From IMG/VR virus record IMGVR_UViG_3300011361_000001, positions 62,001-126,000 of that record: a stretch of DNA of 64,000 bases; one strand, 5' to 3'. Below the pieces are notes generated by a model. It worked only from the letters and a program-made list of their open reading frames with translations. It was not told where the DNA came from and searched no databases. This document shows positions 19,555-56,135 of the stretch, in pieces (position 1 is the first letter of the stretch; each line of letters begins with the position of its first letter). This DNA comes from an uncultured virus (IMG/VR IMGVR_UViG_3300011361_000001). Lineage: Duplodnaviria; Heunggongvirae; Uroviricota; Caudoviricetes. The translations under genes and the position numbers were made by a program.

Positions 19555-19578
19555 TGTCTTTCCTAGGAGTCTTACAGC

Positions 19579-40634: not shown

Positions 40635-41135
40635 TTACGTATTAACGACCCACTGTCCTGTGGCGGGCAGTGCGACGTCGAACGTCCAGTTTAAATAGGT
40701 CCGGTTCTGTTCAGCCAAATAGGCGTTACGAACCAATCGACCTATGTGTCCGTTGATGGTCATGTCGCCTGCGTAAGTACCGCTGACGTTACCCTCAACT
40801 GCCATCTCAATCCACATCCGAGGTCCCACCCCAGTGAAGTCTTTACTGCCGGTGATCATGTACTGGACACGATGACCGGTTTTCAAGTTAGGGACGGTGG
40901 TGCTACCGTAAGGACTGGACGTAATATGGTTGAATCCGTACTGGATGTAACTGCCGGCGTTGAGTGTTCCGACGGTTACTGTGGCGGCGTAAAGATTATT
41001 CAGTATCCCCCGATACAGAAACTCAATCCACCGACCCCCTTGTTTGACCAAATAACGAACGGGCTTCTTCCACACCCCACCTTGTTTTACTAACGGTATG
41101 GTGTTGATCCAAGCCCCTGCAAGTTTGAGTTTCAT
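40635..41135 (-). CDS. Putative fibre-tip/adhesin paralogue 2
   Basis: K.(A/G)G.W three times, plus shared TVG, YG, ITGS, W.E, ING..G, RTY..W.F and W.V motifs. Confidence 0.6.
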   Translation of the reverse strand: MKLKLAGAWINTIPLVKQGGVWKKPVRYLVKQGGRWIEFLYRGILNNLYAATVTVGTLNAGSYIQYGFNHITSSPYGSTTVPNLKTGHRVQYMITGSKDFTGVGPRMWIEMAVEGNVSGTYAGDMTINGHIGRLVRNAYLAEQNRTYLNWTFDVALPATGQWVVNT

Positions 41136-41147
41136 GACAAGTACCTG

Positions 41148-41642
41148 TTAAGTGTTGACGGACCACTGACCCGACAATGACAACGGTTTATCAAACACCC
41201 AACCAATGAATGTTCGAGCACCCCCACTGGTACCTTCGCTAACACTCACCAAACGTCCGTAGTTACCATTGATCGTGATGTCACCTATCTGGTTGGCCAC
41301 GTGCATCAAACTTCCTTCAATCACCATCTCCATCCATTGGTACGCAGGTGCACCGTAATAAGGCTTACTGCCGGTGATCAACGAAACCATCTTGTTAACG
41401 AATTTAGAGGCTGTCGGATTGGCTGAACCTAGGTTGGTTGAGTAACCGTATACGACGTAGCTACTGGTGACAGTTCCAATGGTGACGGTACCGTTATAGA
41501 GACTGTTGAGTATCCCTTTTAGGTAATCGTCTTTCCACACCCCGTTGTGTTTTACTAGGGTACGGTAAGGATAACACCAGGCACCCAAATGCTTGATGCG
41601 TAAGGATAACGTTTTCCAAACCCCCGCTTGTTTGACTTTCAT
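41148..41642 (-). CDS. Putative fibre-tip/adhesin paralogue 3
   Basis: Same motif set, AAGGAG RBS. Confidence 0.6.
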   Translation of the reverse strand: MKVKQAGVWKTLSLRIKHLGAWCYPYRTLVKHNGVWKDDYLKGILNSLYNGTVTIGTVTSSYVVYGYSTNLGSANPTASKFVNKMVSLITGSKPYYGAPAYQWMEMVIEGSLMHVANQIGDITINGNYGRLVSVSEGTSGGARTFIGWVFDKPLSLSGQWSVNT

Positions 41643-41677: not shown

Positions 41678-41720
41678 GTCATAAAAGGTCACCTAAGGAG
41701 GCCGAAGCCTCCTTAGTGAC
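41678..41720 (-). terminator. Terminator of the radical SAM cluster
   Basis: On the - strand: gtcactaaggaggc-ttcg-gcctccttaggtgac followed by ctttt. Confidence 0.75.
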
Positions 41721-42274
41721 TATAGACAATTGAAGTAGTAATCGCTGACCAACGTTAACCGCATCTGGTCTTTTACTGGAGGCACGTAGTGCTCCAAGTA
41801 GCTTGGAAGAATCACCAAGTCACCGGCTTTGGGTGAGTAATGATGCTGACCGAAATAGCTGTCACGAATCTCACGAGGATACCCTCGACACGCATTTCCC
41901 CGAGGGTCGTACAAGACGATCTCAGAGTCGTAATCGCCCAGATACAAGATCGTGGTAACCGCCGAACTGCCGTGCAAGTGTGCCCCTAACGCTTTGCCTT
42001 CAGGCAGCCAACGACCAAAGCTTTCTACCTGTACCGTTTGGTACTTGTAGTTGAACTCTTGGTGGATGAAATCAATCACAGCCGGTGTGATCAACCGCTG
42101 CCTTACATCAACGATCAACCGGAACTCTTGATCAGTCGGTGTATAAGGTTTGTCATCATCTGAGGCCACCATGTAACTTAACGCTAGGACTTCATCAGCC
42201 AGTTGCATTAAGTCACAATGGTCTTTAAGGTTCACCACCCCAATGCGTGTGCGCCACGGTTCGATTATCTGCAT
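41720..42274 (-). CDS. 2OG-Fe(II) oxygenase (TIGR02466-like)
   Basis: HLH...Y...DPRG...P.AG.LVI.PSYLEH.V...R.T facial-triad pattern. Confidence 0.8.
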   Translation of the reverse strand: MQIIEPWRTRIGVVNLKDHCDLMQLADEVLALSYMVASDDDKPYTPTDQEFRLIVDVRQRLITPAVIDFIHQEFNYKYQTVQVESFGRWLPEGKALGAHLHGSSAVTTILYLGDYDSEIVLYDPRGNACRGYPREIRDSYFGQHHYSPKAGDLVILPSYLEHYVPPVKDQMRLTLVSDYYFNCL

Positions 42275-42825
42275 TGTTCCTCCACCACCAAATCGGTGAC
42301 TAACGACAGACGCAGTTCAGGATCATGTCCACCCACACAATGCGTTAAGTACGCCGGGAAGATCACTAACTGACCAGCCTGAGGTTCATGACGGAAGTTA
42401 GCAAAGTGGTGGTCCCGAACGGCTTGTGGAAAACCCCGACTGCTGCTACCACGCGGGTCCAACGCAATCAGGGGTGCTTCACCACTGATGGGATAGAACA
42501 CCGAACTTAAGGTGGAGAAGCTGTGTTGATGCGGCTCCATTCCACGTCCGTCAGTTAACGACAACGCAAAGTGCTGGAAGTAATGTGGGTACTTGTCCAG
42601 ATCCACCTGATACACTTCCTGCATGTATTGCTTCAGGATGGGTCGAATAACGTCTTCCTGTAAGGCCTGCAACACCGCAGTCCCGTCAGCAACCACCTCG
42701 GTCAATTCCTCTCCCGTCGGGACGGTGAGCATGGCCTGAGTGATTGCCTCAAGGTCACACCGATCGCTGAGGTCGACAGTCCAGATAACAGTGTTCCACG
42801 GTTGATGACGAACGATTTTACCCAT
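42265..42825 (-). CDS. 2OG-Fe(II) oxygenase (TIGR02466-like), paralogue
   Basis: PHQH...S.V.Y...DPRG...PQAGQLVIFPAYLTH.V...R.S. Start at MGKIVRH (GGAG RBS). Confidence 0.8.
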   Translation of the reverse strand: MGKIVRHQPWNTVIWTVDLSDRCDLEAITQAMLTVPTGEELTEVVADGTAVLQALQEDVIRPILKQYMQEVYQVDLDKYPHYFQHFALSLTDGRGMEPHQHSFSTLSSVFYPISGEAPLIALDPRGSSSRGFPQAVRDHHFANFRHEPQAGQLVIFPAYLTHCVGGHDPELRLSLVTDLVVEEQCR

Positions 42826-43255
42826 TGACACGCTCCAACCCTTCAGCGGTACATTCCAACCGGAAGTACTCAGCCGACATCGGTGCCCAACCCCCATCGA
42901 TCCAATTTGGCATCTTAGCAAGTTCTGCCAGAATGGCTTCGTAGGTGTCAGGGTCTTGGCTGTAGATCACAAAGAAATCATCGTGACCTAAAAACAGATC
43001 CGAGTCATCCAAGCTTTCACGCAACGGGATGCCGTATTCCTTTTCCAACAAGGTGGCGTAGATGATAGCCACAGCGTAGCTCTTAGCCGGATACACCAGC
43101 GGGAACTCAGCCTTACGGAAATAGTTCAAGGCGTTCTGAACCAGTTCTTCTTTGCGTACCCAGTCCATGTTCTCGAAGTCGTCAGCGTGTTCACGTACGA
43201 GCTCGTGGTATAGACGTTGGTACAGTTTGTAGTCGTGTTCAACAGGTGTGTTCAT
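42818..43255 (-). CDS. Hypothetical accessory protein of the radical SAM cluster
   Basis: 145 aa, overlaps both neighbouring genes. Confidence 0.7.
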   Translation of the reverse strand: MNTPVEHDYKLYQRLYHELVREHADDFENMDWVRKEELVQNALNYFRKAEFPLVYPAKSYAVAIIYATLLEKEYGIPLRESLDDSDLFLGHDDFFVIYSQDPDTYEAILAELAKMPNWIDGGWAPMSAEYFRLECTAEGLERVNG

Positions 43256-44337
43256 GGGAGTTGTCTACTGCTAATTAGGTTGTCAAGTTCAGTGCCGCAG
43301 TATTGCAGTTCTTTGCCGTATTCACGATGTAAGTCATGACGATTTTTGATCCCGAGCGGACAGTGATCAATGTTCAAGTACCGCATGGTGGTGTGAAGAT
43401 CACCGTGGGTACAGACGTTAACGTGACAGCAATCGCCACACACCGGATGGTCTGTGAACTTGGTGAGGTTTTCAATGTACTGGTTTTGCCGATAGTCCAT
43501 CACCTGCTCGGCATCCCATGGTTTAGGGATTTCGTAGAAGGGGTCAAAGATGGGAAACTTTTCCATCACCACAGGGATGTGATATAACACCCCATCACGA
43601 TACCCTAACTCGACACCGTCAAACGGATCGTGTAACAGGTGACCTACAAACTTGGAGTCGTGGTCTGCAATCACTTGCGTGAACTTGTAGACATCGTGTT
43701 TGAATTCATCGTGACGCAGCAGGTTTTCAAACCCATTACGCGAGTGGGTGAAGGTGTAGTCTTTAATGGTCCTAACCCCCAGATCCAAACTCATGATGTG
43801 GTGGTGATACTCAGGATTAAAGACCGCGATGTTCTCACGGAACATGTTGATCGTAAGGTAAACACTGCGCAGCGTAGACTTGTGCAGGTGACTGGCAAAC
43901 AGCTGGACTCGGTCTCGCAACAAAGCTAAGTACTTCTGGTTGTAGCTGTGCTTAACCGTTAAGGGAACGACCAATCGAACCCCTTTACCCGCCATCAGTT
44001 CGTCAACCAGTTGGGCCAGTTCTGCAATCCCGTCATCACGCAGCATCGCCATCGTTAAGACCACGGTTTTAAAGCGATCCGCCATCCCTTGAATCAGGTC
44101 ACTGCGCATCACCTCCCAACCGTTTTTAGCCGACAGGACATCAGTGGGGGCAAGGCTGAACTCAAATGGTCGAAAGCCTTTACTGTGTAAGTCATCCACC
44201 AGTTGAAACAAACGCGTGGCTTCGTCTTCAGCAACCACGTCAGGCTTGTGGTCTTTGTCAACGGTACAGCCACCACAGTGGTAGTTACACCCTTCTAATA
44301 CCTCAAGGGTTAGATTGATGTCACACAACCGATCCAT
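43252..44337 (-). CDS. Atypical radical SAM/SPASM-like protein
   Basis: CNYHCGGC triad, no GGE motif (SLAPTD instead), C-terminal CGDCCHVNVC...C. Confidence 0.7.
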   Translation of the reverse strand: MDRLCDINLTLEVLEGCNYHCGGCTVDKDHKPDVVAEDEATRLFQLVDDLHSKGFRPFEFSLAPTDVLSAKNGWEVMRSDLIQGMADRFKTVVLTMAMLRDDGIAELAQLVDELMAGKGVRLVVPLTVKHSYNQKYLALLRDRVQLFASHLHKSTLRSVYLTINMFRENIAVFNPEYHHHIMSLDLGVRTIKDYTFTHSRNGFENLLRHDEFKHDVYKFTQVIADHDSKFVGHLLHDPFDGVELGYRDGVLYHIPVVMEKFPIFDPFYEIPKPWDAEQVMDYRQNQYIENLTKFTDHPVCGDCCHVNVCTHGDLHTTMRYLNIDHCPLGIKNRHDLHREYGKELQYCGTELDNLISSRQLP

Positions 44338-45355
44338 GCTCGACCCCCACCATACAGTCTTTGATGCTCAGACGCTCCATAAGGCTCGTGATGCCCTTCT
44401 CGTTGCAACTGCTAAGATACACACAGTTCATGCACTGCGTGCCTTCTAGGTGCTCCAGAGAGCTTTGCTGGGCCTTTGTACGGATAGTTAACAAGTGCTC
44501 CATCGTCCACGGGCGAGGAATCTCGAAAAACGGGTCGATAAAGGCGCAGTCGTCTTTCAAGAACGGCACCCAATACAACTTACCATCCGTATAGAGCAGG
44601 TTCATCATGGTCCCGGTGTCATAACACAGATCCGGGTTCTGTCGACGCTCATCCTCCCCTTCCAACTCTTTGTAGAAGTCAGAGATCAGATAAGACATCC
44701 GGCGCATCGTTTGACCGAGCAGCAGGTCTTTAACTTCTTTACGGCCATACGGGATGTTCAAGATGTCATCTTTGTCGACAGGGAACTCTACATCCAATCC
44801 ATTGATCAGATTCTCGATGTAGTGCTCGTTCATGGTCTCGGTGGTACAGTTGACCACAAAGCCTGCTTCATTTAAGTACGCCGACTTAAACGCCGCTTGT
44901 GCATGGCGCATGCGGTGTACTATGCCGTCTGAGAACTTGGTGTTACGAAAGTAGTCAGGAGCGGCCGGGATCAAAAACCGAATGCGTTGCCCTGGAGCGG
45001 CTGCATCCACTTCCGCACACATCTCATCGTACAACTCCAGACGTTTCTCAAGCATCGCCATCTGAAGAGTGAACTGATGGAACATGTGAATGATTTCGCG
45101 TACCACCGGATCACGCAACACTTGGTAGGCGTTGGTGGACGACATGGTGTCGGTTGCCCCAAGACCTAAGTCAAAGGCTACGTACCCTGCCTGGACCATC
45201 TCTTTGAGCAACGCCAGAATCTCTGGCATGTCAGCAAGGTTGCCACCGATCTCACGGTTGACCATACAACCGCTACAATGGTGGTTACACCCCTCGTACA
45301 GATCGAGGGTGATCTCTAGGCGTTGACGATGGGGAACTATCATAGCTCGCTCCAT
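44321..45355 (-). CDS. Atypical radical SAM/SPASM-like protein
   Basis: CNHHCSGC triad, no GGE motif (GLGATD instead), C-terminal CMNCVYLSSC...C. Confidence 0.7.
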   Translation of the reverse strand: MERAMIVPHRQRLEITLDLYEGCNHHCSGCMVNREIGGNLADMPEILALLKEMVQAGYVAFDLGLGATDTMSSTNAYQVLRDPVVREIIHMFHQFTLQMAMLEKRLELYDEMCAEVDAAAPGQRIRFLIPAAPDYFRNTKFSDGIVHRMRHAQAAFKSAYLNEAGFVVNCTTETMNEHYIENLINGLDVEFPVDKDDILNIPYGRKEVKDLLLGQTMRRMSYLISDFYKELEGEDERRQNPDLCYDTGTMMNLLYTDGKLYWVPFLKDDCAFIDPFFEIPRPWTMEHLLTIRTKAQQSSLEHLEGTQCMNCVYLSSCNEKGITSLMERLSIKDCMVGVEHGSVV

Positions 45356-46266
45356 TTAACAATGAGGTTGTGAAATCCATTACAGGATTCGTTTAGATCC
45401 ACCACAGGTCGCAAGTGTTCAGAGAGACAACTGCCGAAGTAGTTACACTTACCACAGACGGGGTTGTGACTGACGCGTTGCTTTTCAGACTGACACCATT
45501 TCACGTACCCGGCGATCCCTTGAACGGGGAGAAAGTATTCACGGTCCTGGTCATCAAACTCTAAGACGGCGAACTCAGCTTTGGGTGTGATATACAGGTG
45601 GTCATCACTGAAGGCGTTACGGGTCCCTGCCAAGACATCTTGCAAAAGGAACTCGTTCTCCACCTCGAAGCTGCGATCCGGGTGAGTCAATACACCGTAG
45701 ACAAAGTTTTCAAACTCGCTGAAGGTGACGGTGTCAGCGTTGGCTTGGTTAGTGCTATAGGGTTTGAACTCCACCCCATACATTTGTCCCAACAGGTTAA
45801 ACGTCTGCACACACTCGTCCACACTGACGGTATCGAGTAGTTTGCGACTGACCAGCGTCAGCACTCGGTATTCACGAGGCAAGGTGAGCATGTTTTCAAA
45901 GACTTTATCAGCCTTCTCGCGTGCCCCGAAGTCATACGAAACCGACAACGTGATGTCAGGGTCCAGTGCGGTTTCATTGACCAACGACAGGTTCGTATTG
46001 ATGTTGATGTCGGTACAACCGGCCTCACGCACCAAGGCTAACAAGTTCTCTCGATACCGTTGCGGGAGTAGCAACACCTCACCCCCGTAGATGTCGACAT
46101 GTTCGATCCTGTAGTGTTCAGAGATCTCAGCCAGCATCACCTTCAACCGGTCCAACGACAACAGGGTGACATCGCTCAGTTGCTGCTCTGTCAGGTAACA
46201 GAAGCTGCACCGGAAGTTGCAGTAGTACACCGGATTCAGAGAGAGGGTGATACTGGGCTTGCTCAT
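45340..46266 (-). CDS. Radical SAM protein with C-terminal Cys cluster
   Basis: CNFRCSFC, YGGE, TNLS, and CGKCNYFGSCLSEH...C. Confidence 0.9.
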   Translation of the reverse strand: MSKPSITLSLNPVYYCNFRCSFCYLTEQQLSDVTLLSLDRLKVMLAEISEHYRIEHVDIYGGEVLLLPQRYRENLLALVREAGCTDININTNLSLVNETALDPDITLSVSYDFGAREKADKVFENMLTLPREYRVLTLVSRKLLDTVSVDECVQTFNLLGQMYGVEFKPYSTNQANADTVTFSEFENFVYGVLTHPDRSFEVENEFLLQDVLAGTRNAFSDDHLYITPKAEFAVLEFDDQDREYFLPVQGIAGYVKWCQSEKQRVSHNPVCGKCNYFGSCLSEHLRPVVDLNESCNGFHNLIVKWSEL

Positions 46267-46270
46267 GACA

Positions 46271-47380
46271 CTATCCTTTAAAAATCAACTGCAGACTTTC
46301 ATCCACATACGGCGTAGGTTCTAAGATCCCCTCCATACCGTTCATGCGAATGATGGCTGGGGCGTTGGCTTTCATAGCACGACAGTGTTGTTCCACAAGA
46401 CCCAAACGTTTGGTATCGGCAATAGTCTTTTTGCAACCATTACATAACTCAAACATCGGACAGGTGTAACAGGAGTTTTTCAAACTGTCTAACTCAAACT
46501 GCTGAAGTGGGGTGAAGAACTCGCCCGCCATCTCACGTTTGAAGTCGATCGCGTTCTGCTGATCATCCCCGAAGTGACCACAGCTGTAGTAACCACCCCC
46601 AGGCTGCAAAGTGCGGATACCCGAATCACAATCACGCGAAGTCGGACAGGTTGTAGAGTGACCTTGGAGTTTCTTTGCCACCTGTTTGGTGTTGTACTCC
46701 CACTGCATCAAGCCGGCTTCAAAGATCTCCACGTAGTGACTATACATCTCTCCACGGGTGTACAGTTTGTCTGCGTTACCCATGGTTACACCACCGACCA
46801 CGACTTCTTCACCTGAGGCATTGGCGTAGTTGAGTTTACACTCCACCCCTAAACGCTGAGCCAGACGCACTGTGTCTAACACCGTGTGGGCGTTCGTGTG
46901 ATCGATCACCGCAATGAAGTCAGGCCGGTACCCTACGTGTTCGAGCATGGCATCACTGCAGGCAATGAAGTCTTCCTCAGTAAAGACTGAGCCGTCCCCT
47001 TTGCGTCGGCCGTCTCCGTATTGAAACGAGGTCGTGACCCCAACCCGAGGGTGATTGAACAAACCTTTCCACAACTCAGGCTTTTTGTAGAAGGGCCAGA
47101 GGTTGGTCGTAAAGCTGATACTGGCCTCAGAACCCAACTCATCTAACAACGCAATCAGGTCCCAGTAAAACTGAGGAGGCATCATCAGCGGATCACCACC
47201 GTTTAAGATGATGGTCTGGGTTTCAGGAAAGCGTTTGATGAATTGACGAATTTCATCTAACTGTACACGGTCCTTAGGATCTTCGGACAGGTACGTACTG
47301 GAGCAGAAGGTGCACCGAAAATTGCAAGAACTCGTTGGTTTCAATATGAGATCGATTTTAGTTCTCCTTAAATTTGGCAA
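46271..47380 (-). CDS. Radical SAM/SPASM protein
   Basis: KPTSSCNFRCTFC, GGDPL, TTNL, and SPASM-like C...C...YSC...CYTC..FELCNGC...C. TTG start with a GAGGA RBS. Confidence 0.9.
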   Translation of the reverse strand: MPNLRRTKIDLILKPTSSCNFRCTFCSSTYLSEDPKDRVQLDEIRQFIKRFPETQTIILNGGDPLMMPPQFYWDLIALLDELGSEASISFTTNLWPFYKKPELWKGLFNHPRVGVTTSFQYGDGRRKGDGSVFTEEDFIACSDAMLEHVGYRPDFIAVIDHTNAHTVLDTVRLAQRLGVECKLNYANASGEEVVVGGVTMGNADKLYTRGEMYSHYVEIFEAGLMQWEYNTKQVAKKLQGHSTTCPTSRDCDSGIRTLQPGGGYYSCGHFGDDQQNAIDFKREMAGEFFTPLQQFELDSLKNSCYTCPMFELCNGCKKTIADTKRLGLVEQHCRAMKANAPAIIRMNGMEGILEPTPYVDESLQLIFKG

Positions 47381-47402
47381 GGTCCTCTATAGGTCCATAA
47401 AA

Positions 47403-47630
47403 CTACTCTTCTACCTTCATGATTTCATTCGGTGCTACCCAAAAAGGCTCGGTCCCTTCAACAGACTTAGAGACTTGATAGGCGTAGAGGGCTTTGTCAT
47501 TGACCTGGGTGATGTAGAGCACGTCAGCACGTTGGGCGTGGACACGGGTTTTACCTTTCACGCCTGCTAAACTCTCAGACGTGATTTCATATAGGGCGTA
47601 AACTTTGTCACCAACTTTAAGGGGGAACAT
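47403..47630 (-). CDS. Small hypothetical protein
   Basis: GGAGG RBS before ATG 47630. The LKVGDKVY...FWV sequence has an SH3/KOW-like look. Confidence 0.6.
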   Translation of the reverse strand: MFPLKVGDKVYALYEITSESLAGVKGKTRVHAQRADVLYITQVNDKALYAYQVSKSVEGTEPFWVAPNEIMKVEE

Positions 47631-47711
47631 GGCAACCTCCATAGGTTTATTTATATCATCGCGCATAGGCGTAATAAATGACCGTCAGGGTTTTACCCCC
47701 GACGGCCTAGG

Positions 47712-48710
47712 TTACAAAATAGCTTTGAACATCGCTTTGATCTGACACTCGCCTGCAGTGTCCTCAACGAAGCTGTGGTGCAAGAAACACCGTAACCCGC
47801 ACCGTTGATAGTACTCGCAGGAGAAACAGCCGTAGTGGTCCAGGAAACGCTCCTCAGCCGCATTCTTCGCCTGCAGCCCCAACTGTTCGTCCAAGATGGC
47901 ATCTTTACCGGCTTCTGACCAACACGTCGAGACCACACCGTCTTTGTTGACGATCTTGGTTGAACGGCACGTCGTGATGTTCTCCTGATTCTCTTTCCAC
48001 GCAATCAGTGGATGAGAGTTCGGGTGATGTTCGTTCAGGTACAGGTAGAGTTGACCGATCAGGTCTTCAGAGGGTTGGATGCGTTCGTAGTTGACACTTG
48101 GGATGTAGTGATCAAAGTACACCGAGAAATTTGCACACAAGAACGTTAAGCGTTCAGCCTCTCGTCCTGACATGATGGTCTCGATGTTCTGTTTGGTGAT
48201 CACCACGTTTACGGTGTCCACGTACTCTTGTACTTGCAGCAGGTTGCGGAAGAACAGCTCACGTTCCTCGTACGTAAACCGACCCGCCGGGTCATACGAG
48301 GTGGCGATCTTAACCTTGCCGTGGAAGCTCAACGCTTTGACCAGATGTTTCAGACGGTTGGCGTTGCGATACACCAAGTTAGCCCCAAACACAATCGTGA
48401 CGTCATCGTAGTAACTGAACAGCTTACGGGCGATGCTGTAGTAGACGTCGATCTGTGAGTTAGGAAACTCATCCAAGAACAACTCACCCCCTGTGATGTT
48501 CACCACGTAAGGGTCTTTGGGGTTGGTGTTGGCCATCAGGGTTTCAACCTTTTCCCACATGGCGTCCACATTTAGCCCCACTTTGGAGTCGTGGTCTTGG
48601 TGGCAGAAACTGCAACGCAGGTTACAGTACTCAAAGAGAATCAGATGAGCTTCTTTCAACTCCCCTTTCTTGTCAGCCAACAAATCGACCAACGGAATCA
48701 ATCCAGCCAT
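47712..48710 (-). CDS. Radical SAM/SPASM protein
   Basis: CNLRCSFC, TGGE, SYDP.GRF, and C...STC...CFSCEYYQRC..RC...C. Confidence 0.9.
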   Translation of the reverse strand: MAGLIPLVDLLADKKGELKEAHLILFEYCNLRCSFCHQDHDSKVGLNVDAMWEKVETLMANTNPKDPYVVNITGGELFLDEFPNSQIDVYYSIARKLFSYYDDVTIVFGANLVYRNANRLKHLVKALSFHGKVKIATSYDPAGRFTYEERELFFRNLLQVQEYVDTVNVVITKQNIETIMSGREAERLTFLCANFSVYFDHYIPSVNYERIQPSEDLIGQLYLYLNEHHPNSHPLIAWKENQENITTCRSTKIVNKDGVVSTCWSEAGKDAILDEQLGLQAKNAAEERFLDHYGCFSCEYYQRCGLRCFLHHSFVEDTAGECQIKAMFKAIL

Positions 48711-49768
48711 TTTGCACCTACTCCTGCTTTGACGAACGCTTCAAGCGGTGCGTTGATTACAAACCGCAACAGGTTGTCGTCGTACTTTCCAATGTCACGT
48801 TGGGAAACCCGAACCATCTTTGGACCGTGGTCGAAGAACCGATGGAGCAGTTCAAAGAGGGTCGCCTTGTCCTCCACTACAAACCCGTTCAAGTAGACTT
48901 CATGGATACTCTCCATGTAGGCCACAATGCTCAAGTCGTTGTTGTGACGGAGCAAGAACAACATCTCACCGATCATCTCAGCGAGCCACTCCACCGGGAA
49001 GCGATCGTTGATGTTAGACAGCATCACGAAGTCGGCGTTGTTCAAGTACTTAAAGTTGTAGCACCCCTGAAACACAGTGTCCTCATTTAAGAGGGTGTCA
49101 AGGTCGGCCCCAATCAATTTCCACTGATCAGGATTGCTCATAAAGGTCGACAAATACCCCATGGTGTCGGGTACGTTAGTCAACAACACACGGTCAATCA
49201 AACGCCGCAACCGTAGACCGGTTGATCCCATCGGTTGACCTAACCGCACCCCTAGAACGTCCCACTCAAACGAACGGACGATCCTTTCCTTACAGATCCA
49301 TCGACTAAGGACCGTAACCAACCAATCACAGTGCGCCTCGTCAAAGGCTGCTTGGACTTTGGGACCTGTAATCGTCACCGGGTTAATGTGACTGGTGCGC
49401 TCGCGCATGGTGGTTGTGGTGCGACAGTTGAGAATGCTTTTCTTGCACAGAAACAGATAACGGAACGTTTCATAGTCAACACCTGGCATATAAGCGAAGA
49501 CCAAAGCGGCCCACAACCGAATGTAGGTCGCTTCGTCTGCGTACAGATACGCCTCGTCTTTCCACGCCAGTTGTTCGAGCAGTTCTTCAAAGCCTGTGAC
49601 TCCAAGCTCATCTAACGACTCACTGACGCAGATCGGACTGATTGCGCTCTCGTTCCCTTCCAACACCAGAAAAGGCATCCCCATCTGTTTAGAGACCACC
49701 GCCCGATTGGCTTCATCATCGATCTCTCGATCGACTTCAACGTACAGGCTATTAAACAGATGGAACAT
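48698..49768 (-). CDS. Hypothetical accessory protein of the radical SAM cluster
   Basis: 356 aa, tightly coupled to its neighbours. Confidence 0.75.
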   Translation of the reverse strand: MFHLFNSLYVEVDREIDDEANRAVVSKQMGMPFLVLEGNESAISPICVSESLDELGVTGFEELLEQLAWKDEAYLYADEATYIRLWAALVFAYMPGVDYETFRYLFLCKKSILNCRTTTTMRERTSHINPVTITGPKVQAAFDEAHCDWLVTVLSRWICKERIVRSFEWDVLGVRLGQPMGSTGLRLRRLIDRVLLTNVPDTMGYLSTFMSNPDQWKLIGADLDTLLNEDTVFQGCYNFKYLNNADFVMLSNINDRFPVEWLAEMIGEMLFLLRHNNDLSIVAYMESIHEVYLNGFVVEDKATLFELLHRFFDHGPKMVRVSQRDIGKYDDNLLRFVINAPLEAFVKAGVGAKWLD

Positions 49769-49771
49769 GAC

Positions 49772-50479
49772 TTAGTTTCCTTCCAACAACGCCGGGAGCG
49801 CCGCATCGTGGGCTTGGACGATTTGGGCAAATTCCGGTTGGAACTCAGGGAAGTACAAAGTACCTGCTGAAATGAACAACACGTTGTCAGGCGACTCGAA
49901 GTAGTGATACAGGTTCTTACCTGCAAACACACGCTCCTCGAACCAGTGCTTGCTGTAGCGCAATGGGCGCTCTTTAGCAAAGTACAACGCCATCCCTGGG
50001 TGAGTCAGACAGTGCACCCAGTTCAATCCTGAGGCCGATTCATCCACACCCGGCCACGCCGCTTCATCAAGCTGTAGGTGATCGCCTGCAACGCAGCGAG
50101 CAGCAAACAAGGGACAGCAATCCAAACGCTCAGCCCAAAGATCCAACGCCGCCCCGTGAGTTTCGAAGAACACCTGCGGATCAAACGGTACAGACCCCGG
50201 CATGCCTTCACGGATCAACAACAGGTTGACGACAATCCCAACCAAAGATTCTTGACGGTACATCACAGGCAACTTCAGGTAAGCTGCTGTCAATTCCATC
50301 AATGCCTCTTCACCTGCAACCAAGAGATCCACCTCAAGCTTCAGGTTACTCAGGTATGTCAGAAAGGCCAGACCTTTGAACTTGGATTCGTTGTACTGAA
50401 TCTCAAAGTGGAGGTCTTCTGTGAATTTGCGCTTGAGTTCGAGCACCGGGATGGGAGCCGGGGTAGTGATGACTTGCAT
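49772..50479 (-). CDS. Hypothetical accessory protein of the radical SAM cluster
   Basis: 235 aa, AGGAG RBS. Confidence 0.75.
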   Translation of the reverse strand: MQVITTPAPIPVLELKRKFTEDLHFEIQYNESKFKGLAFLTYLSNLKLEVDLLVAGEEALMELTAAYLKLPVMYRQESLVGIVVNLLLIREGMPGSVPFDPQVFFETHGAALDLWAERLDCCPLFAARCVAGDHLQLDEAAWPGVDESASGLNWVHCLTHPGMALYFAKERPLRYSKHWFEERVFAGKNLYHYFESPDNVLFISAGTLYFPEFQPEFAQIVQAHDAALPALLEGN

Positions 50480-50493
50480 AAGGGGAACTCCTG

Positions 50494-51108
50494 TTAACGG
50501 CGGCCGCGGTTGCTGTGGCAGTCGGAGTGGCAGTTACTGTGACAGAACGTTTTGGTGATCCGCAGCGTCTGGTTACTGAGGTTTACGATGTTGGCGTAAA
50601 CACGTTCGCAGTAGTTGATCAACTCACCACGACTTACCACCTGACCGGCTGAAGGCGGCCACGCCGCACGGTTATCGACTCCGTGTAAATAGGGATCAAC
50701 GTAATCGCCTGCTGACCAACCACCGGCGCTACTGTTGGCGTTTGCTACAGCCGCTTGAGTCCGAGTCAACGCAACGCTGCTGGTCAGTCGAGTGATACCT
50801 GTGGTGTTTTGACGAACCGACAGACTTCCACCACTGTTGTAGTAGGACAAGAACTGGATGGATCGTACCCGTGCCCAGTTACGACCGTAGGCTGCGATGT
50901 TAGCCACTACCGCCTCGGCATTCACAGGACCTGCCGGCAACCAGCTTGCAGCAAAACCGCCGGTGACAATACCGGTGTTACCACCGTAGTTCGGGTCACC
51001 AAAGTCGCTTGGGTAGTTGTTGTTACCGTAAGAGACACGACTGTCCAAACGGTCGCGTAGATACGCGGTGATGATGTTGGCAATATCCTGCCGTGTAATA
51101 TCAGCCAT
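50494..51108 (-). CDS. Putative modification substrate with C-terminal CXXX repeat
   Basis: 204 aa, G/N/S/A-rich, ends in FCHSNCHSDCHSNRGRR. Confidence 0.7.
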   Translation of the reverse strand: MADITRQDIANIITAYLRDRLDSRVSYGNNNYPSDFGDPNYGGNTGIVTGGFAASWLPAGPVNAEAVVANIAAYGRNWARVRSIQFLSYYNSGGSLSVRQNTTGITRLTSSVALTRTQAAVANANSSAGGWSAGDYVDPYLHGVDNRAAWPPSAGQVVSRGELINYCERVYANIVNLSNQTLRITKTFCHSNCHSDCHSNRGRR

Positions 51109-51113
51109 GTCGT

Positions 51114-52157
51114 TTATGCCTTGAATATCAGGTTGGGGTCGTACGGGTTAGGTCGACCACTTAAATAGCGTAGCGTGTTCTTAAGGCCCGCACAGCGGTA
51201 GCCTTGCCAAGACAAGCGATGGCAGTCGCCACCACACAAGTCAAACACGTCGCAACGAATGCACAACTCAGAGAAGTCTAACTCCCGTACGATCTGATCG
51301 ACACGACCCTCTGAGGCAAGGTAGTTTTGGACAGGTTGGTGAATGTTGCCGTGGTTGTGCTCACTGGCCACATTAGGACAACCGCCTAAGGTCCCGTTGG
51401 AATTGATGGTGGTGAGGTTCTGCTCACAGTTCCGACAGTTGGTGTCCACAGCGACCATGTTGTACTGGATCTTCTCGATCAAGATGTCTAAGGTTTTGAT
51501 GTGGGCTGAATACTGACCGGTCTGGTACAATTTAAGTAACGCCAAGTACCAGTTGTCTTGCGCCTCGTTGTCAGGAAACACGTGTTCGTTACGCAGCGCA
51601 TTGCCGCCTACGGTCAAGCGTTCCAAGGAGACATCACGAACCGGTAAGGCTGAGACCTGCTCTAAGAACCATTCAGGACTCTGTTCCACCATTTGTCTGG
51701 ATACCGACACCTTCAACCCTAACTCAACACCCTGGTCGGTTAAGTACTGAAGGTTTTTACGCCACAGACTTTGTTGCTCACCAGTTTCCCACCGAATCCA
51801 GGGGTCCCAGCTGGTACCTATTGAACCGCCTAGTTGGTTCTGGATGAAACTGAGTAGACGAGGATGGATGGTGAACGTCAAATTACTGTTGGCAGACATC
51901 GACACCAAGTCATCGCCTTCGAAGTGCGCCGCAAAGCGCTCTAATAGCTCGATAGGGACGAGGAACGGTTCACCGCCATGCAACTCTAGGTGCGTGTGTG
52001 TACCGGGCTCAAACGTCGCCCTAAGGCCTTTGATCCAACTGGCTGTCGCATCGGGGTCAAAGCGTGTAGTGTCTCCATTGCGTCCGCTGGTAAAACAGTG
52101 ACTACAATTGAGGTTACACGACCCCGTGGTTTTGACATAGATCGTTTTGACCGTCAT
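51114..52157 (-). CDS. Radical SAM/SPASM protein
   Basis: KTTGSCNLNCSHC, HGGEP, and SPASM-like CRNC...GGC...CIRC..FDLCGGDC...C. Confidence 0.9.
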   Translation of the reverse strand: MTVKTIYVKTTGSCNLNCSHCFTSGRNGDTTRFDPDATASWIKGLRATFEPGTHTHLELHGGEPFLVPIELLERFAAHFEGDDLVSMSANSNLTFTIHPRLLSFIQNQLGGSIGTSWDPWIRWETGEQQSLWRKNLQYLTDQGVELGLKVSVSRQMVEQSPEWFLEQVSALPVRDVSLERLTVGGNALRNEHVFPDNEAQDNWYLALLKLYQTGQYSAHIKTLDILIEKIQYNMVAVDTNCRNCEQNLTTINSNGTLGGCPNVASEHNHGNIHQPVQNYLASEGRVDQIVRELDFSELCIRCDVFDLCGGDCHRLSWQGYRCAGLKNTLRYLSGRPNPYDPNLIFKA

Positions 52158-52660
52158 AGCTTCTCAACCATCCACTTCTCAAAGCCTAGGCTGACCATGA
52201 TGGACGCTTTCTCATTCACAGCGTAGTGTTTCACATTCGCCGGCATGTAAAGCGTATCACCCGCCTTTAGATGGTGACTGATACCGTCCACCACCATGGT
52301 TTTCTCGCCATCGATTACACAGACCAAGACATGATCAGGATCTGTGTGTTCGTTGAATGTGTAACCCCCTGCTGGCGCTATAAAGACGTGGGCAGATACC
52401 GGTCCGTAGTGTTTGTAGGCGTTAGCTTGTAGCTTACACCATTCCCATACTCCACGGTCGAAGGTTTCGAAGTGCTCCAGTTTGATGGTGGTGTTACGAC
52501 CCATCAATGAGGTGGAGTTCTGAAACGCGTTCACAACGTTAGGTTCTGCGATCACATGGACAATCTGTTGCTCACGGGCGTAGTCAGAACTGATACACAG
52601 ATCAAAGTACTGATTAGCTTTGGCGCAGATCTCTCTATAACTCAGCATGAGGATACTCAC
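52154..52660 (-). CDS. JmjC/cupin-fold Fe(II)-dependent oxygenase
   Basis: HTD...V.V....G.K...L.AGD.LY.PA...H (HxD...H). Start at GTG 52660 or ATG 52648. Confidence 0.8.
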   Translation of the reverse strand: MSILMLSYREICAKANQYFDLCISSDYAREQQIVHVIAEPNVVNAFQNSTSLMGRNTTIKLEHFETFDRGVWEWCKLQANAYKHYGPVSAHVFIAPAGGYTFNEHTDPDHVLVCVIDGEKTMVVDGISHHLKAGDTLYMPANVKHYAVNEKASIMVSLGFEKWMVEKL

Positions 52661-52661
52661 T

Positions 52662-53456
52662 TTAAAGGTTAGTGGCGTTGATCTCCGATTTCAGCTCGTC
52701 GATCTCTGCACGCAAGTTGGCAAGTACTTTATCGGCGTAGCTACGATGTACCAACTGTTCCAGACGAATCGGGACCAGATCGCCTTCCGGTTTCTCAGCC
52801 ACAGGGCGTTCACGAGAACCAAAGGTACAACCGCGCATTCCGCTCAGTAACACTATTTGGAAATCGTTACGAGCCGCATCCCCACACCAGATCTCGGTAT
52901 GGATCATGTCTTCTATCTTAACGCGACGATAGAAGAACTCTGTGGTGTAACGACCACTCATCACGTTGATCACAGGCGCCCGGCCTTCACGACCAATACG
53001 CATGTAGGCAACCGGACGTTCGGCCATGAACCCGTAAGGACCGCCCCCTACAAACGCAAACAACAGGTCGTCGTTAACTGCGTGTTTTTTACCCAGTGTG
53101 CTGGTGGAGTTCTCAGGGATACTTACCAGACGAGACCAACCCCCTTTACTGAAGGGAATCATGACGTAGGGGTGACTGAGTTCCCGAATCCGGTTTTTGA
53201 CATCGGTCAGGATGTCTTCAACGGTCAATCCGTTCAGGCGATCGGCATCGAGTATTCGACTATCCATATCGCGAATCTTGTTGAGCAACTCTTCCAACGA
53301 GACGCCATCTAACAACGTTGCATTACGAGCAAAGGCATTTTTAGCCAAGTACTCAAGCAAACCTTCGAAGGTGTGTCCATTGAAACGTTCTGCGTTTTGA
53401 GCCGTGTCAAAGACACCCAACTTGTCTTCTAAGCTCATAGTCTTGCTCTGGTCCAT
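52662..53456 (-). CDS. Tail-fibre-related protein
   Basis: Three (N/D)A..(L/F).G..+E.+ repeats. C-domain paralogous to 53474 and to the end of 56192. Confidence 0.6.
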   Translation of the reverse strand: MDQSKTMSLEDKLGVFDTAQNAERFNGHTFEGLLEYLAKNAFARNATLLDGVSLEELLNKIRDMDSRILDADRLNGLTVEDILTDVKNRIRELSHPYVMIPFSKGGWSRLVSIPENSTSTLGKKHAVNDDLLFAFVGGGPYGFMAERPVAYMRIGREGRAPVINVMSGRYTTEFFYRRVKIEDMIHTEIWCGDAARNDFQIVLLSGMRGCTFGSRERPVAEKPEGDLVPIRLEQLVHRSYADKVLANLRAEIDELKSEINATNL

Positions 53457-53473: not shown

Positions 53474-54232
53474 TTAAGTCCGGCGATTGAGTAGAGTTTC
53501 TTTGAGCGCTTTAAGCTCTTCTTGCAAAGGCGTGACAGACTCAATGAACGTTTCGGTGGTGATGGCTTCGTCGCACACAATGGGAAACAGTGTATCGATG
53601 GGAGGGACTTCTCCATCAAACTGACAAGGACCGTAGGTGTGTGCACGGGTCGAGTTCAAGCACGCCATGTGTAACGTGTCTCGACGCTCTGCCGTGTGCC
53701 AAATCTCCAAGAAGATGACATCGTTCTCAGAACGACTGCGGCTGTAGAACTGACCGTTGATCTGACCAGCTAACGCCAACGCCAATGAAGGACGTCCTTG
53801 GGCACCTACACGCAACATCACCAGAGGTTGTTCGCCCTCTGAACCACCACCCATCAAACCAAAGACAAAATCTTCGCGATCAGGTTGAATTTCAACAGTG
53901 ACCAGAAGTGTCCACGGATTAGTAGTTGGGGTGAAGAACGTCGGTTGGAAGGTACGGGTTTCAACCAACTGGTTCAACTGTGCTTTGAGTTCACTGACAG
54001 TCAGGCCACCAAACTTGTCAACCTCTTCTGCGTACACTTTGGCTTGTTGGGCTATGGCATAAAAGTCATCCAACCCAAACCCGCCGAGGCTCTTGACCTC
54101 ATGGACGCGCCCTTCGCTTTCAACAAAGGCATACAGCTCATCCAAGGTACGACCTTGTAGCAGTTGGGTGTCGTTCGCTGTCCCGTCACGGTCCAGTTTC
54201 GTGGCTAATTGTTCAGGGGTGATTTCAGACAT
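53474..54232 (-). CDS. Tail-fibre-related protein (paralogue of 52662)
   Basis: Same repeats and W..LV...F.F..GG...+R+G...FY.R...EIW domain. Confidence 0.6.
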   Translation of the reverse strand: MSEITPEQLATKLDRDGTANDTQLLQGRTLDELYAFVESEGRVHEVKSLGGFGLDDFYAIAQQAKVYAEEVDKFGGLTVSELKAQLNQLVETRTFQPTFFTPTTNPWTLLVTVEIQPDREDFVFGLMGGGSEGEQPLVMLRVGAQGRPSLALALAGQINGQFYSRSRSENDVIFLEIWHTAERRDTLHMACLNSTRAHTYGPCQFDGEVPPIDTLFPIVCDEAITTETFIESVTPLQEELKALKETLLNRRT

Positions 54233-54311
54233 GGTGTTAATCCCACAGGACAAAATAAAGAAAGAAACAAGTATGGGCTGTTAACCCATACCTGATTCTT
54301 CGAGGTTTACA

Positions 54312-56135
54312 TCAGGACCACTGAGCCGGCCAAACTTGACGCCAAGCACCACCACCCCAGATATACACGCCCGTTCCGTTCCAGTGAACGCTGCAATCAA
54401 AACCTGCGGCGTTCTTAGGTGCGTATCGTGCATCGTGGTCTGCGGAGTTTACGTGGTCGAACATTCCCTTGGCTGTCAGCAACGAAGCGTCGGTGTTAGA
54501 ACCACGCGAGCTTGTGATCGAGTTAGGAATGGTACTCAAGCCCACCTGGGCCTTCGTGACGCCATGAGGGTTGTCAGAGCGACTGATGTGTGCGTTCATC
54601 GGGACCACAGCCAAGGTGTTGATGGCCTGTCCTGTACGCAACGGTGTCATATATGTACCGTTATCTGTCGCTGCTTCTGCCAACGCTTGGGTTGCCACCG
54701 TGTAGTTCAACACGTTCCCGAGGCCCACTTGTGCTTTCGTCACCCCGTGAGGGTTGTCGGCACGTGCGATGTGAGCGTTCAGAGGTGTCAACGCTTGGGT
54801 GAAGATGGCCTGAGAACTGCGCAGCGGTGTCATGAAGCGAGTGTTGACCGTGCCTGCACGGGCTTCTGCTTCAGTAGCGGTTGCGTAGTTATCAACATCT
54901 CCCAATCCAACTTGGGCTTTGGTGGTAGCATGTGGGTTGTCCACACGATCCACGTGAGCCTTAAGCGGAACCAACGCTTGGGTGTCAATCGCTTGTGCGG
55001 TCTTCAAAGCCGTCATGTACAGCGAGTCACTGGTGCCGACACGGGCCTGTGCTTCAGTGGCCACGCCATAGTTCAGAACACTACCAAGACCTACCTGTGC
55101 TTTAGTCACTGCGTGCGGGTTGTCCGTACGAGCAGTGTGAGCATTGAGGGGTTTGATGGCGTGTTCATCGATGGCTTGCTTGGTCAGCAACGGAGTTACG
55201 TACAACGAAGGCGACGTCCCTGCAATCATGTCCGCTTGCGAGGCCACGTTGTAGTTAGCGACTAACCCCAAACCAACCTGTGCCTTAGTGACACCATGCG
55301 GGTTATCCGTACGGGCAATGTGGGCGTTCAGTGGTTTGATGGCATGTTCGTTGATCGCATCACGTACCCGTACAGGCGTCGTGTACAACGCGTTACTGGT
55401 AGCGGCTACCATGTCAGCGGTGGTTGCAACACCGTAGTTCTCAACGCTGCCTAACCCAACCTGCGCCTTAGTGGTGCCGTGTGGGTTGGTTTTGTCTTGA
55501 ACGTGTGTGGCCAAGTTCTGACGGTTTTCAGCAATGCTTTCACGCAACAGTCCGTCTTCGTAACGAATCCACTGACGCATTTCTTCGTGGACGGCTTCGT
55601 CACCAATCAGGATCGCATGACGCAATGCTTCCAGCGCTTCTGTCACATACTCGAAACCATAAAGGTCGCCGATGTCGTGTAGGTGAGGTGCTGGTGGATA
55701 CGCACTGGGTCGCGCGATGATGTCGCCCCAGCTAACGGTACGCTCGTCCAAGTCTTCGTCTTCGATGGCTTGGCGCAAAGCGTCCACCGACACACTGAAG
55801 TCACCACCAACCGTTTGATATTCAAGGGTAACCTTGCCCATCACGTTCTGGTCGATGATCACCACCGCCATGCAAACCTCACGGTTCAACGAGGCAGTGG
55901 CATCAGCGTGAAGTTGTGCTGCGATGTAGTGCTGGTTAGGTACAAGAGGTTCGACTTGGTCTTCGACCCAGACCACAAGCGATTCACTGTAGAAGGCGCT
56001 GTAGTGTGGAACGATCGCTCGGTTGACTCCGGTACCCAGGTCGTGCTCTTCCCCAACAATGCGGTTGTTAGGGTTGACGGCCGTGGGGTCAATGGGGTAC
56101 TTAAGAATAAGCCCCCGCGTCAAGGTTGAGGACAT
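54312..56135 (-). CDS. Tail fibre protein with NPH repeats
   Basis: Six NPH..TKAQVGL units spaced about 61 aa apart. N-terminal YP.DPT...N....E.H domain. Confidence 0.8.
   Translation of the reverse strand: MSSTLTRGLILKYPIDPTAVNPNNRIVGEEHDLGTGVNRAIVPHYSAFYSESLVVWVEDQVEPLVPNQHYIAAQLHADATASLNREVCMAVVIIDQNVMGKVTLEYQTVGGDFSVSVDALRQAIEDEDLDERTVSWGDIIARPSAYPPAPHLHDIGDLYGFEYVTEALEALRHAILIGDEAVHEEMRQWIRYEDGLLRESIAENRQNLATHVQDKTNPHGTTKAQVGLGSVENYGVATTADMVAATSNALYTTPVRVRDAINEHAIKPLNAHIARTDNPHGVTKAQVGLGLVANYNVASQADMIAGTSPSLYVTPLLTKQAIDEHAIKPLNAHTARTDNPHAVTKAQVGLGSVLNYGVATEAQARVGTSDSLYMTALKTAQAIDTQALVPLKAHVDRVDNPHATTKAQVGLGDVDNYATATEAEARAGTVNTRFMTPLRSSQAIFTQALTPLNAHIARADNPHGVTKAQVGLGNVLNYTVATQALAEAATDNGTYMTPLRTGQAINTLAVVPMNAHISRSDNPHGVTKAQVGLSTIPNSITSSRGSNTDASLLTAKGMFDHVNSADHDARYAPKNAAGFDCSVHWNGTGVYIWGGGAWRQVWPAQWS

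Follow-up and report, generated by a model that had tools for sequence, protein, structure and literature searches.

A conserved cassette of radical SAM enzymes and oxygenases beside the fibre genes of a jumbo phage, and the small Cys-His-tailed protein that it may mature

Why should a phage keep six radical SAM (S-adenosylmethionine; rSAM) proteins and three iron-dependent oxygenases directly behind its fibre genes, and on what would they act? The question is raised by a stretch of 64,000 nucleotides (the window), which covers bases 62001-126000 of a single uncultured virus of 222,670 bp (IMG/VR record IMGVR_UViG_3300011361_000001). The large open reading frames (ORFs) of the window match families of phiKZ-type jumbo phages, namely a 719-aa major head protein (phrog_3231), virion structural proteins, ribonucleotide reductase, DnaB, a baseplate protein and SbcC, and the genome is that of a phiKZ-like jumbo phage of 222.7 kb. 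The enzymes are encoded in a block at 41720-52660, which, judged by sequence comparison, is one copy of a conserved cassette present on more than 120 viral contigs and at about 38 bacterial loci. The reading that we develop below is that the cassette matures the C-terminal tail of a small protein of the fibre module.

The block (on the minus strand, as are all window features named below) consists of 14 co-oriented ORFs, all found where the initial annotation of this DNA had placed them. They encode six proteins with a CX3CX2C motif (rS1 to rS6), two 2-oxoglutarate (2OG)-Fe(II) oxygenases of family PF13759, one cupin/JmjC_2 protein, four unknown proteins (U235, U356, U87 and U145) and one 204-aa protein with a conserved tail, here called the CHS protein. 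In the sense of transcription, the order is cupin, rS1, CHS protein, U235, U356, rS2, U87, rS3, rS4, rS5, rS6, U145 and the two PF13759 oxygenases. Of the 13 junctions inside the block, seven are overlaps of 4 to 17 nt, and the gap between the cupin gene and the gene upstream on the fibre side (52662-53456) was measured as 1 nt, as annotated. A Pfam scan of the 14 products matched no peptidase or transporter family, in line with the initial remark that none was apparent. As the ORFs, the CX3CX2C motifs, the family scores and the lack of a peptidase or transporter match agree, the earlier observation was confirmed. A megablast search of the block against phages returned no match.

The product of the cassette would be the CHS protein (50494-51108), in which a folded, fast-evolving body carries a near-invariant tail. 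The protein ends CHSNCHSDCHSNRGRR, encoded at 50497-50544 (50494-50544 with the stop codon). The general form of the tail is 16 residues, (C-H-x-x)x3-R-G-R-R, nearly invariant, and a degenerate DNA pattern for it had a single match in the window and none in 100 shuffles. When 81 homologues were aligned, the sole invariant residues were C189, H190, C193, H194, C197, H198, R201, R203 and R204, and the homologous bodies were 17 to 30% identical to that of the window protein. The homologues that follow rS1 in the isolates DT01, RSL2 and Atu_ph07 also have diverged bodies and end in C-H-[ST]-x-C-H-x-x-C-H-x-x-R-[GS]-R-R. To describe the positions that the pattern leaves free, they were tallied in 125 unique viral tails, chosen by the tail motif among the matches listed. 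Ser stood at -13 in 114 tails, at -5 in 110 and at -9 in 96 (Asn in another 26), Gly at -3 in 110, and V/I/L at -17 in 102; 123 tails had three units and two had four. The window tail, CHSN-CHSD-CHSN, is atypical in its fourth positions, a trait common to its closer relatives: none of its three units has Ser at His+2 (H-S-N, H-S-D, H-S-N), whereas most relatives' tails show H-x-S three times. Three metagenomic protein clusters (P0014-P0016), 56 to 59% identical to the window protein, end in CHSN-CY[KT]A-PHxN-RGRR, with the second His replaced by Tyr and the third Cys by Pro; no genomic locus of this variant was found in viral or metagenome contigs.

The predicted structure of the CHS protein has an alpha/beta body (predicted local distance difference test, pLDDT, 80.3; predicted template modelling score, pTM, 0.75) with a variable stretch, at about residues 125-159, for which the prediction is poor. 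Longer homologues carry insertions mid-protein, and across homologues the body is a folded domain of 110-430 aa with a variable middle. Foldseek with the model gave no match at E <= 0.001, the best VIA Z was 4.4, within noise, and the sole row against PDB chain sequences, a trimeric autotransporter adhesin, was insignificant (E 0.089). In tblastn searches against phages, neither the window protein nor the small marine type described below found a match, and ESM Atlas searches with the CHS protein and with U235 returned unnamed clusters only, with scores of 0.90 or below.

As the set of tails had been chosen by the motif itself, loci were refetched through a profile of the neighbouring U235 family, which yielded 80 viral loci, 78 of them with upstream DNA. 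The ORF directly upstream of U235 carried a three-unit tail in 77 of the 78 and a two-unit tail in one, indicating that the linkage of the cassette to the tail is obligate. A 171-aa ORF with a two-unit tail (ending ...CHSNCHINRSRR) lies at L183:~3460-3978, a locus found through U235.

The tail pattern was matched in at least 123 viral stretches and in 47 stretches of bacterial or archaeal genome contigs. The same gene order, with diverged bodies and the same tail, was present in the isolates Pseudomonas DT01, Ralstonia RSL2/RSF1, Agrobacterium Atu_ph07 and Sinorhizobium Phosso, and the order that recurs over the loci is large ORF(s), cupin, rS1, CHS protein, U235, a 340-390-aa protein, rS2, rS3, rS4, U145 and oxygenases. 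The gene set is conserved as well. When the window proteins were used in phmmer searches of 77 loci of at least 10 kb, homologues of rS2 were found in 72 loci, rS1 in 67, rS3 in 61, rS4 and U235 in 60 each, the cupin in 55, U145 in 52, the 2OG oxygenases in 33, rS5 and rS6 in 30 each, the fibres in 11 and U87 in none. No description of the cassette was found in the literature; the papers on phages S13, FLC6, RP12/RP31 and DT01, in the parts that were available, list the genes only.

The six rS proteins all carry CX3CX2C near the N-terminus (at residues 14, 29, 19, 16, 23 and 17 from rS1 to rS6) and all fall among rSAM ORFs in the tree described below. The core enzymes are rS1 (51114-52157), of the radical SAM/SPASM type with eight late Cys and directly upstream of the CHS gene; rS2 (47712-48710), SPASM-like, also with eight; rS3 (46271-47380), SPASM-like, with ten; and rS4 (45340-46266). 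In rS1 to rS3, 7 to 8 late Cys form a SPASM-like pattern (C..C..GxxC ... CX2CX5CX2-3C ... C); rS4 to rS6 show one set only, CX2CX5C...C. Two proteins passed the Pfam Radical_SAM gathering score (PF04055; 29.5 bits), rS3 with 43.3 and rS4 with 36.9 bits; three stayed below it with 25.0, 21.4 and, for the accessory paralogue rS5 (44321-45355), 19.1 bits, and the second accessory paralogue, rS6 (43252-44337), had no match to it. For the SPASM family TIGR04085 (cut-off 27 bits), rS1 passed with 31.0 bits and rS3 fell below with 21.2.

A tree of 328 radical SAM ORFs, with clade sizes counted as non-redundant leaves, placed rS1 to rS4 in separate clades of 73, 70, 56 and 61 leaves (support 0.964, 0.946, 0.853 and 0.995, respectively), each of which mixes viral and bacterial loci, and rS5 and rS6 as sisters within a small accessory clade of 4 leaves. 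The closest NCBIfam families among the matches listed were peptide or protein maturases (anSME, DynA, PapB, AmcB and YhhB), and the matches to QueE, MoaA and NrdG were weak and confined to the N-terminal part. The initial annotation had named a grouping with cofactor or DNA-base modification families as a finding that would speak against it; the nearest families proved to be those of peptide and protein maturation. Searches against PDB chain sequences gave a weak match of rS3 to anSME (4k36, E 3e-4), chance-level rows for rS4 and no match for rS1 or rS2.

Membership was rejected for each of the following maturase families. For anSME (TIGR03942), rS3 and rS1 scored 44.4 and 41.6 bits against 349.45; the sulfatase motif for anSME, C/S-x-P/A-x-R, is absent, the last tail unit, C-H-S-N-R, having no P/A at +2. 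For the PapB type (NF047865), rS1 and rS2 reached 38.2 and 25.8 bits against 340, and the NCBIfam score fails for DynA too. TIGR04115, which we take to be the CXXX-repeat peptide maturase and which the initial annotation had proposed to check, was not among the matches listed for any of the six rS proteins, where an unlisted match would be below about 19 bits.

Other phages' cassettes contain extra enzymes of this kind: all 11 ORFs of 499-592 aa match Radical_SAM, and eight of them also match a B12-binding domain. Such a B12-binding radical SAM enzyme of about 500-590 aa lies between rS2 and rS3 in many phage cassettes and some Bdellovibrionota loci (for example L010:4886-6661, L079:13651-15408 and nine others), and the window is without it. 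A different radical SAM cluster stands behind two YomR-like fibre genes in the related Ralstonia jumbo phage RP31 (ORF68-76; PMC5468394, Table S2B), where that table lists a 537-aa rSAM, an 'arylsulfatase regulator', a MoaA-like and a MgoB-like protein; this cluster was not matched in the rS1 and rS2 searches.

All three oxygenases passed Pfam cut-offs. The core cupin/JmjC_2-type Fe(II) oxygenase (52154-52660; 168 aa) matched Cupin_2 (PF07883) with 43.2 bits against a cut-off of 27.2 and JmjC_2 (PF08007) with 38 bits against 22, the latter match covering profile positions 88-126 of 127 only; it carries H-T-D and a later H, which fits an HxD/E...H metal triad. The 2OG-Fe(II) oxygenases a (41720-42274; phrog_81 at 1.7e-14) and b (42265-42825; HQH...H residues) matched PF13759 with 39.4 and 33.1 bits against 27. 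The ORF of oxygenase b extends over 42265-42921, and its true start is probably the ATG at 42825 because of the overlap with 42818-43255. The initial annotation had also suggested TIGR02466 for these two, which did not hold, as they scored 19.6 and 20.7 bits and 62.5 are needed. Among the accessory cassette ORFs elsewhere, 28 of 59 further ORFs are 2OG oxygenases.

The cassette sits in the structural module, behind fibre genes. Upstream of it in the window lie two fibre proteins with NPHxxTKxQVGLG repeats, one of 833 aa (56192-58693; phrog_2163 at 1e-156 and phrog_13857, 'tail protein', at 3e-150) and one of 607 aa (54312-56135; phrog_2163 at 1e-183 and phrog_13857 at 5e-140). In DT01 and RSL2, too, the cassette is preceded by homologues of the 833-aa fibre, and the counterpart of the 607-aa fibre, RSL2 ORF065, is annotated as a virion structural protein. 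More widely, among 67 viral loci with at least 5 kb upstream (a few are duplicates), 58 had a co-oriented ORF of at least 450 aa ending no more than 5 kb upstream of the CHS gene. Of 51 distinct large upstream ORFs, 27 were scanned against PHROG: 12 matched a family of the 'tail' category, nine only the unknown giant-protein families phrog_358/877/5986, three only phrog_22593, one a virion structural family and two nothing informative. Homologous clusters have thus kept both the CHS protein and the fibre linkage, the loss of which the initial annotation had named as a second finding that would count against it. A compact marine form (L004, L029, L037, L038 and others) begins with a giant ORF of 2000-2860 aa, immediately after which come two tandem CHS-type proteins, each of about 127 aa, and then four to six enzymes of the rS5/rS6 type; the cultured phages of the phage collection contained no match to this form.

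One homologue of the CHS protein has been detected in particles. Atu_ph07 Gp170 (L003:15044-15934; numbering verified via CDS (coding sequence) 180, 13,350 bp) was identified in purified virions from 8 unique peptides, which cover 35.16% of its sequence (Attai et al. 2018, PMC6102473, Table S5). The cassette enzymes and U235 of that phage (Gp165, 168, 169, 171 and 172) are missing from the same virion list, which includes the upstream Gp176 and Gp177 (PMC6102473). Gp170 has a mass of 31.89 kDa; it was found in gel bands 1 to 9 with a peak in band 1, where proteins of 75 to 140 kDa peak, and for most other proteins of 29 to 32 kDa, from Gp57 onward, the peak lies in bands 7 to 8 or below (PMC6102473). 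The samples were heated in a loading buffer with sodium dodecyl sulphate (SDS), for which the description names no reductant (PMC6102473). The top-band position suggests a very stable or covalent high-mass species. For RP31, the virion list (PMC5468394, Table S3) contains none of ORF68-76, which is uninformative here because the phage has a different rSAM cluster and the list comes from a shallow gel-band survey.

The cassette is not confined to phages. Nine of the 47 genome-contig matches were chance (the tail did not end an ORF), and the rest carry the cassette, mostly in Bdellovibrionota, some on contigs of 1.3 to 2.8 Mb. As the flanks in six examined loci were housekeeping genes (serine dehydratase, LspA, LolA, SMC and FabH), these copies are chromosomal and not prophage, and the label 'phage-encoded' in the initial annotation is therefore too narrow. 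Proteins with the Peptidase_S74 fibre-chaperone domain occurred in three of the six loci. When five genomes (16.1 Mb) were searched for this domain (PF13884), ten places were found, four of them inside the five 20-kb loci against about 0.06 expected, and a fifth 16.6 kb from the CHS gene. S74 domains are a mark of the MAT prey-recognition fibres of Bdellovibrio (Caulton et al. 2024, PMC10769870), a paper in whose text the term 'radical SAM' is absent. Small Peptidase_S74 proteins were seen less than 10 kb from the cassette at L140:5080-6204, L147:2172-3410 and L163:17582-18625 and 19240-20049, and one such protein also has an N-terminal pilin-type methylation motif.

Taken together, we consider it rather probable that the cassette is a pathway like those for ribosomally synthesized and post-translationally modified peptides (RiPPs), which matures the tail of a fibre-module virion protein, the tail being the substrate. 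In such a pathway, the four core rSAM enzymes (rS1 to rS3 with SPASM-type auxiliary clusters, and rS4) would act on the tail, most plausibly on its three Cys, where the candidate reactions are the formation of thioether-type cross-links or the oxidation of Cys, both of which the nearest families are known to carry out. The JmjC_2 family includes protein Arg and His hydroxylases, and the cupin/JmjC_2 and 2OG oxygenases would hydroxylate side chains, for which His or Arg are the obvious candidates. Any specific chemistry on the tail is at best a tentative guess. U235, U356 and U145 may serve as helpers or as enzymes, and rS5 and rS6 would add lineage-specific steps. The matured protein would become part of the particle, within the fibre/baseplate module or close to it, the enzymes would remain in the cell, and the same kit would serve the trimeric fibres of predatory Bdellovibrionota, for which reason the function probably concerns attachment to, or entry through, the Gram-negative envelope. 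More speculatively, and with clearly less confidence, phages and predatory Bdellovibrionota may share an enzyme-forged element on a small adaptor of trimeric fibres, in which the Cys-His tail is converted either to a rivet that holds it covalently to the fibre or to a new metal or redox centre derived from the peptide; this element would be required for recognising or breaching that envelope.

Several points weigh against this reading. Modification has been observed nowhere, and it is the linkage alone that marks the tail as the presumed substrate. The scores of the rS proteins lie far under every curated family cut-off, so that the chemistry is unreadable from homology. The sublineage near this phage that ends in CHSN-CY[KT]A-PHxN-RGRR indicates that not all three Cys-His pairs are indispensable, and the tail segment was modelled at low confidence (about 59). 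The virion evidence comes from one distant homologue, in a preparation purified with polyethylene glycol for which many proteins are listed, some of them unlikely virion parts (PMC6102473); as no reductant is named, the high band may represent a disulphide-linked or SDS-resistant oligomer instead of an enzyme-made link. On the genomic side, nine of the 67 viral loci have no large upstream ORF, most Bdellovibrionota loci have no giant fibre gene, RSL2 and RSF1 annotate the CHS homologue as merely hypothetical, and the loci overlap between scans and include some duplicates (L054/55, L074/75 and L079/80). The proposal of the initial annotation, a dedicated modification system for a virion or fibre protein, is supported in its comparative part (the tail linkage in 77 of 78 loci, the upstream ORF in 58 of 67, and Gp170 in virions without listed enzymes), the modification itself being putative, and its further idea of a metal-binding tip that mimics a metallophore for receptor binding found no support.

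Cys-His pairs are classic metal ligands, and the same observations could be explained by a tail that binds a metal or an Fe-S cluster or serves for docking, on a small protein that acts as scaffold, adaptor or chaperone, with the enzymes modifying another target such as the upstream fibres. The three Cys-His pairs with a basic end, the large fibre-like ORFs that adjoin the cassette in 58 of 67 viral loci, the co-migration of Gp170 with very large proteins (PMC6102473) and the dispensability of one His and one Cys in the sublineage tail all fit this explanation. The upstream fibres, however, come from unrelated families (phrog_2163, phrog_358 and phrog_22593/19602) with no common target motif, the tail being the only invariant sequence, and most Bdellovibrionota loci keep the kit without a giant fibre. 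We regard this explanation as unlikely.

The C-terminal position of the conserved segment also brings to mind the precursors of mycofactocin and PQQ, whose core is at the C-terminus. By analogy, the body of the CHS protein could be the leader or carrier in a true RiPP or cofactor pathway, and the modified tail, or part of it, could be cleaved off to act as a small molecule, for example as a metallophore, as a redox cofactor or as a toxin that harms competitors. Several SPASM enzymes in one block and a basic tail end that might be a processing site would agree with this, but no protease or transporter family was matched in the block, the 'leader' would be a folded domain of 110-430 aa with a variable middle, the cassette lies within a structural module, and whole Gp170 was recovered from virions (35% coverage; PMC6102473). 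A released product is thus quite improbable, and a classical secreted RiPP cluster was rejected on the folded 204-aa precursor and the same Pfam result.

In the HXS system, the effector HxsA, which has HxS repeats, is matured by the rSAM enzymes HxsB and HxsC together with the small protein HxsD, and SHRSS undergoes a change of +8 Da (Li et al., Nat Commun 2026, PMC13128918). With this precedent for an rSAM-matured HxS-repeat effector (PMC13128918), with H-x-S three times in most relatives' tails and with a strongly basic tail end, the CHS protein might be pictured as a phage-side analogue, a basic effector acting on DNA entry, either in superinfection exclusion or when the phage's own DNA crosses the periplasm. 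The window tail itself, however, has no Ser at His+2, HxsB and HxsC score 19.2 bits (rS2) and 28.7 bits (rS3) against cut-offs of 370 and 267.9, no peptidoglycan-binding domain was matched in Pfam, and the gene order and fibre linkage differ, which leaves this picture very improbable. Formal membership in HXS (TIGR03976-03979) was rejected on the enzyme scores, on 0 of 3 His-x-Ser units in the window and on the lack of an HxsA match at E <= 0.01.

Phages are known to use rSAM and 2OG enzymes for base modification. The DT01 paper connects the six rSAM genes of that phage with DNA repair and with the metabolism of the host (PMC8541153), which suggests a role of the enzymes in modifying phage DNA or nucleotides or in boosting host metabolism, the CHS protein being unrelated. 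Such a role is scarcely credible given best family matches to peptide and protein maturases (those to QueE, MoaA and NrdG being weak and N-terminal only), the obligate linkage to the CHS protein, and a cassette that sits in the structural module and, in Bdellovibrionota chromosomes, next to housekeeping genes.

Three further families belong to the core of the cassette, U235, U356 and U145. U235 (49772-50479; phrog_20767 at 6e-27) is the constant neighbour of the CHS protein; its model is of good quality (pLDDT 87.8), and it had no PDB-sequence, Pfam or Foldseek match (best Z 4.3 over 52 residues, within noise). U356 (48698-49768) is conserved and not a radical SAM protein: profile iteration collected 95 ORFs from 80 of 173 loci, and CX3CX2C was absent from all of these ORFs. 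In the same 173 loci, U145 (42818-43255; phrog_20737 at 1.7e-38) was found in 79, with an invariant YPxKS motif and 12 invariant columns in the alignment. Neither U356 nor U145 matched PDB sequences (nothing below E 0.08) or Pfam. The orphan 87-aa ORF U87 (47403-47666), between rS2 and rS3, is a putative gene with no homologue in the 173 related loci and no family match, and it may be a lineage-specific gene or no gene at all.

On the upstream flank, two free-standing paralogues of the fibre C-terminal region separate the 607-aa fibre from the block. The 264-aa protein (52662-53456) matches residues 576-770 of the 833-aa fibre weakly (E 0.001), and the 259-aa protein (53474-54253) matches the 264-aa one at E 1e-18 and no family; both are absent from the other loci, and from their sequence they may be alternative distal fibre parts. 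Downstream of the block lie two tandem paralogues of 164 and 166 aa (40635-41135 and 41148-41642), which the initial annotation had called fibre-tip paralogues. Their paralogy holds (40% identity, E 6e-35), and a fibre-tip role, like membership of the cassette, is conjectural. For both, phmmer found no homologue in other loci, and PHROG gave just weak matches to families of unknown function. These two proteins open with repeated G-x-W-K strands.

The feature is real and is probably an uncharacterised variant of radical-SAM protein maturation, unusual in its presumed target, a fibre-module virion protein, and in its distribution over phages and predators. Enzymatic post-translational chemistry on phage particles is barely known. 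As four to nine enzymes have been conserved over jumbo phages, marine T4-like phages and predatory bacteria, the assembly of the apparatus that contacts the prey cell would include a step that is both costly and important. For four radical SAM families that are uncharacterised, and for three protein families without a known fold match, the cassette offers a defined putative substrate of 16 residues, and direct tests are feasible in the cultured phages DT01, RSL2, Atu_ph07 and S13. There may also be a bearing on the host range and particle stability of biocontrol phages against Ralstonia, Burkholderia and Agrobacterium. If the shared enzyme-forged element were true, it would mark the first case of a RiPP-like pathway devoted to a structural protein of the virion, and it would tie viral to bacterial predation at the molecular level.

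Four kinds of known systems come close to the cassette. In the HxH iron sites of T4 gp37, His-rich repeats bind metal along the fibre axis. The gp37 tips and the Bdellovibrio MAT fibres (PMC10769870) belong to trimeric fibres for host or prey recognition, and S74 fibre genes adjoin the cassette in Bdellovibrionota. Neither of them, however, is known to need dedicated modifying enzymes, and the CHS protein is a separate small protein, no fused long form of it having been found among 8000 candidates, which is weak evidence. Similarity to the JmjC_2 (Cupin_4) ribosomal oxygenases YcfD/RoxA, NO66 and MINA53 lies in the window cupin, which passes the PF08007 cut-off, and in a tail that offers three invariant His and three invariant Arg; that family hydroxylates Arg or His on folded proteins. 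The window cupin differs in its length of 168 aa and in matching the last third of the profile only.

The SPASM maturases (anSME, the ranthipeptide synthases PapB/CteB, DynA/DarE and AmcB/YhhB) are the nearest NCBIfam and PDB-sequence neighbours of rS1 to rS3, with which they share CX3CX2C and a 7-8-Cys auxiliary domain, and they act on Cys or other side chains of a ribosomal peptide or protein; PapB, for instance, works on repeated C-x3-D/E units. In contrast, the rS proteins score 38 to 44 bits where the families require 340 to 450, and the window has four distinct conserved enzymes per 16-residue tail, with no leader, protease or exporter logic. Nearest in logic among described systems is HXS, in which several rSAM enzymes and small helpers likewise mature a short repeat (His, a small residue, Ser) on a folded protein instead of a small peptide (PMC13128918). 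HXS is a bacterial defence whose effector is periplasmic, undergoes N-terminal processing and has no Cys in its repeats (PMC13128918), whereas the cassette described here brings four to six rSAM enzymes together with oxygenases, in the setting of virion and fibre.

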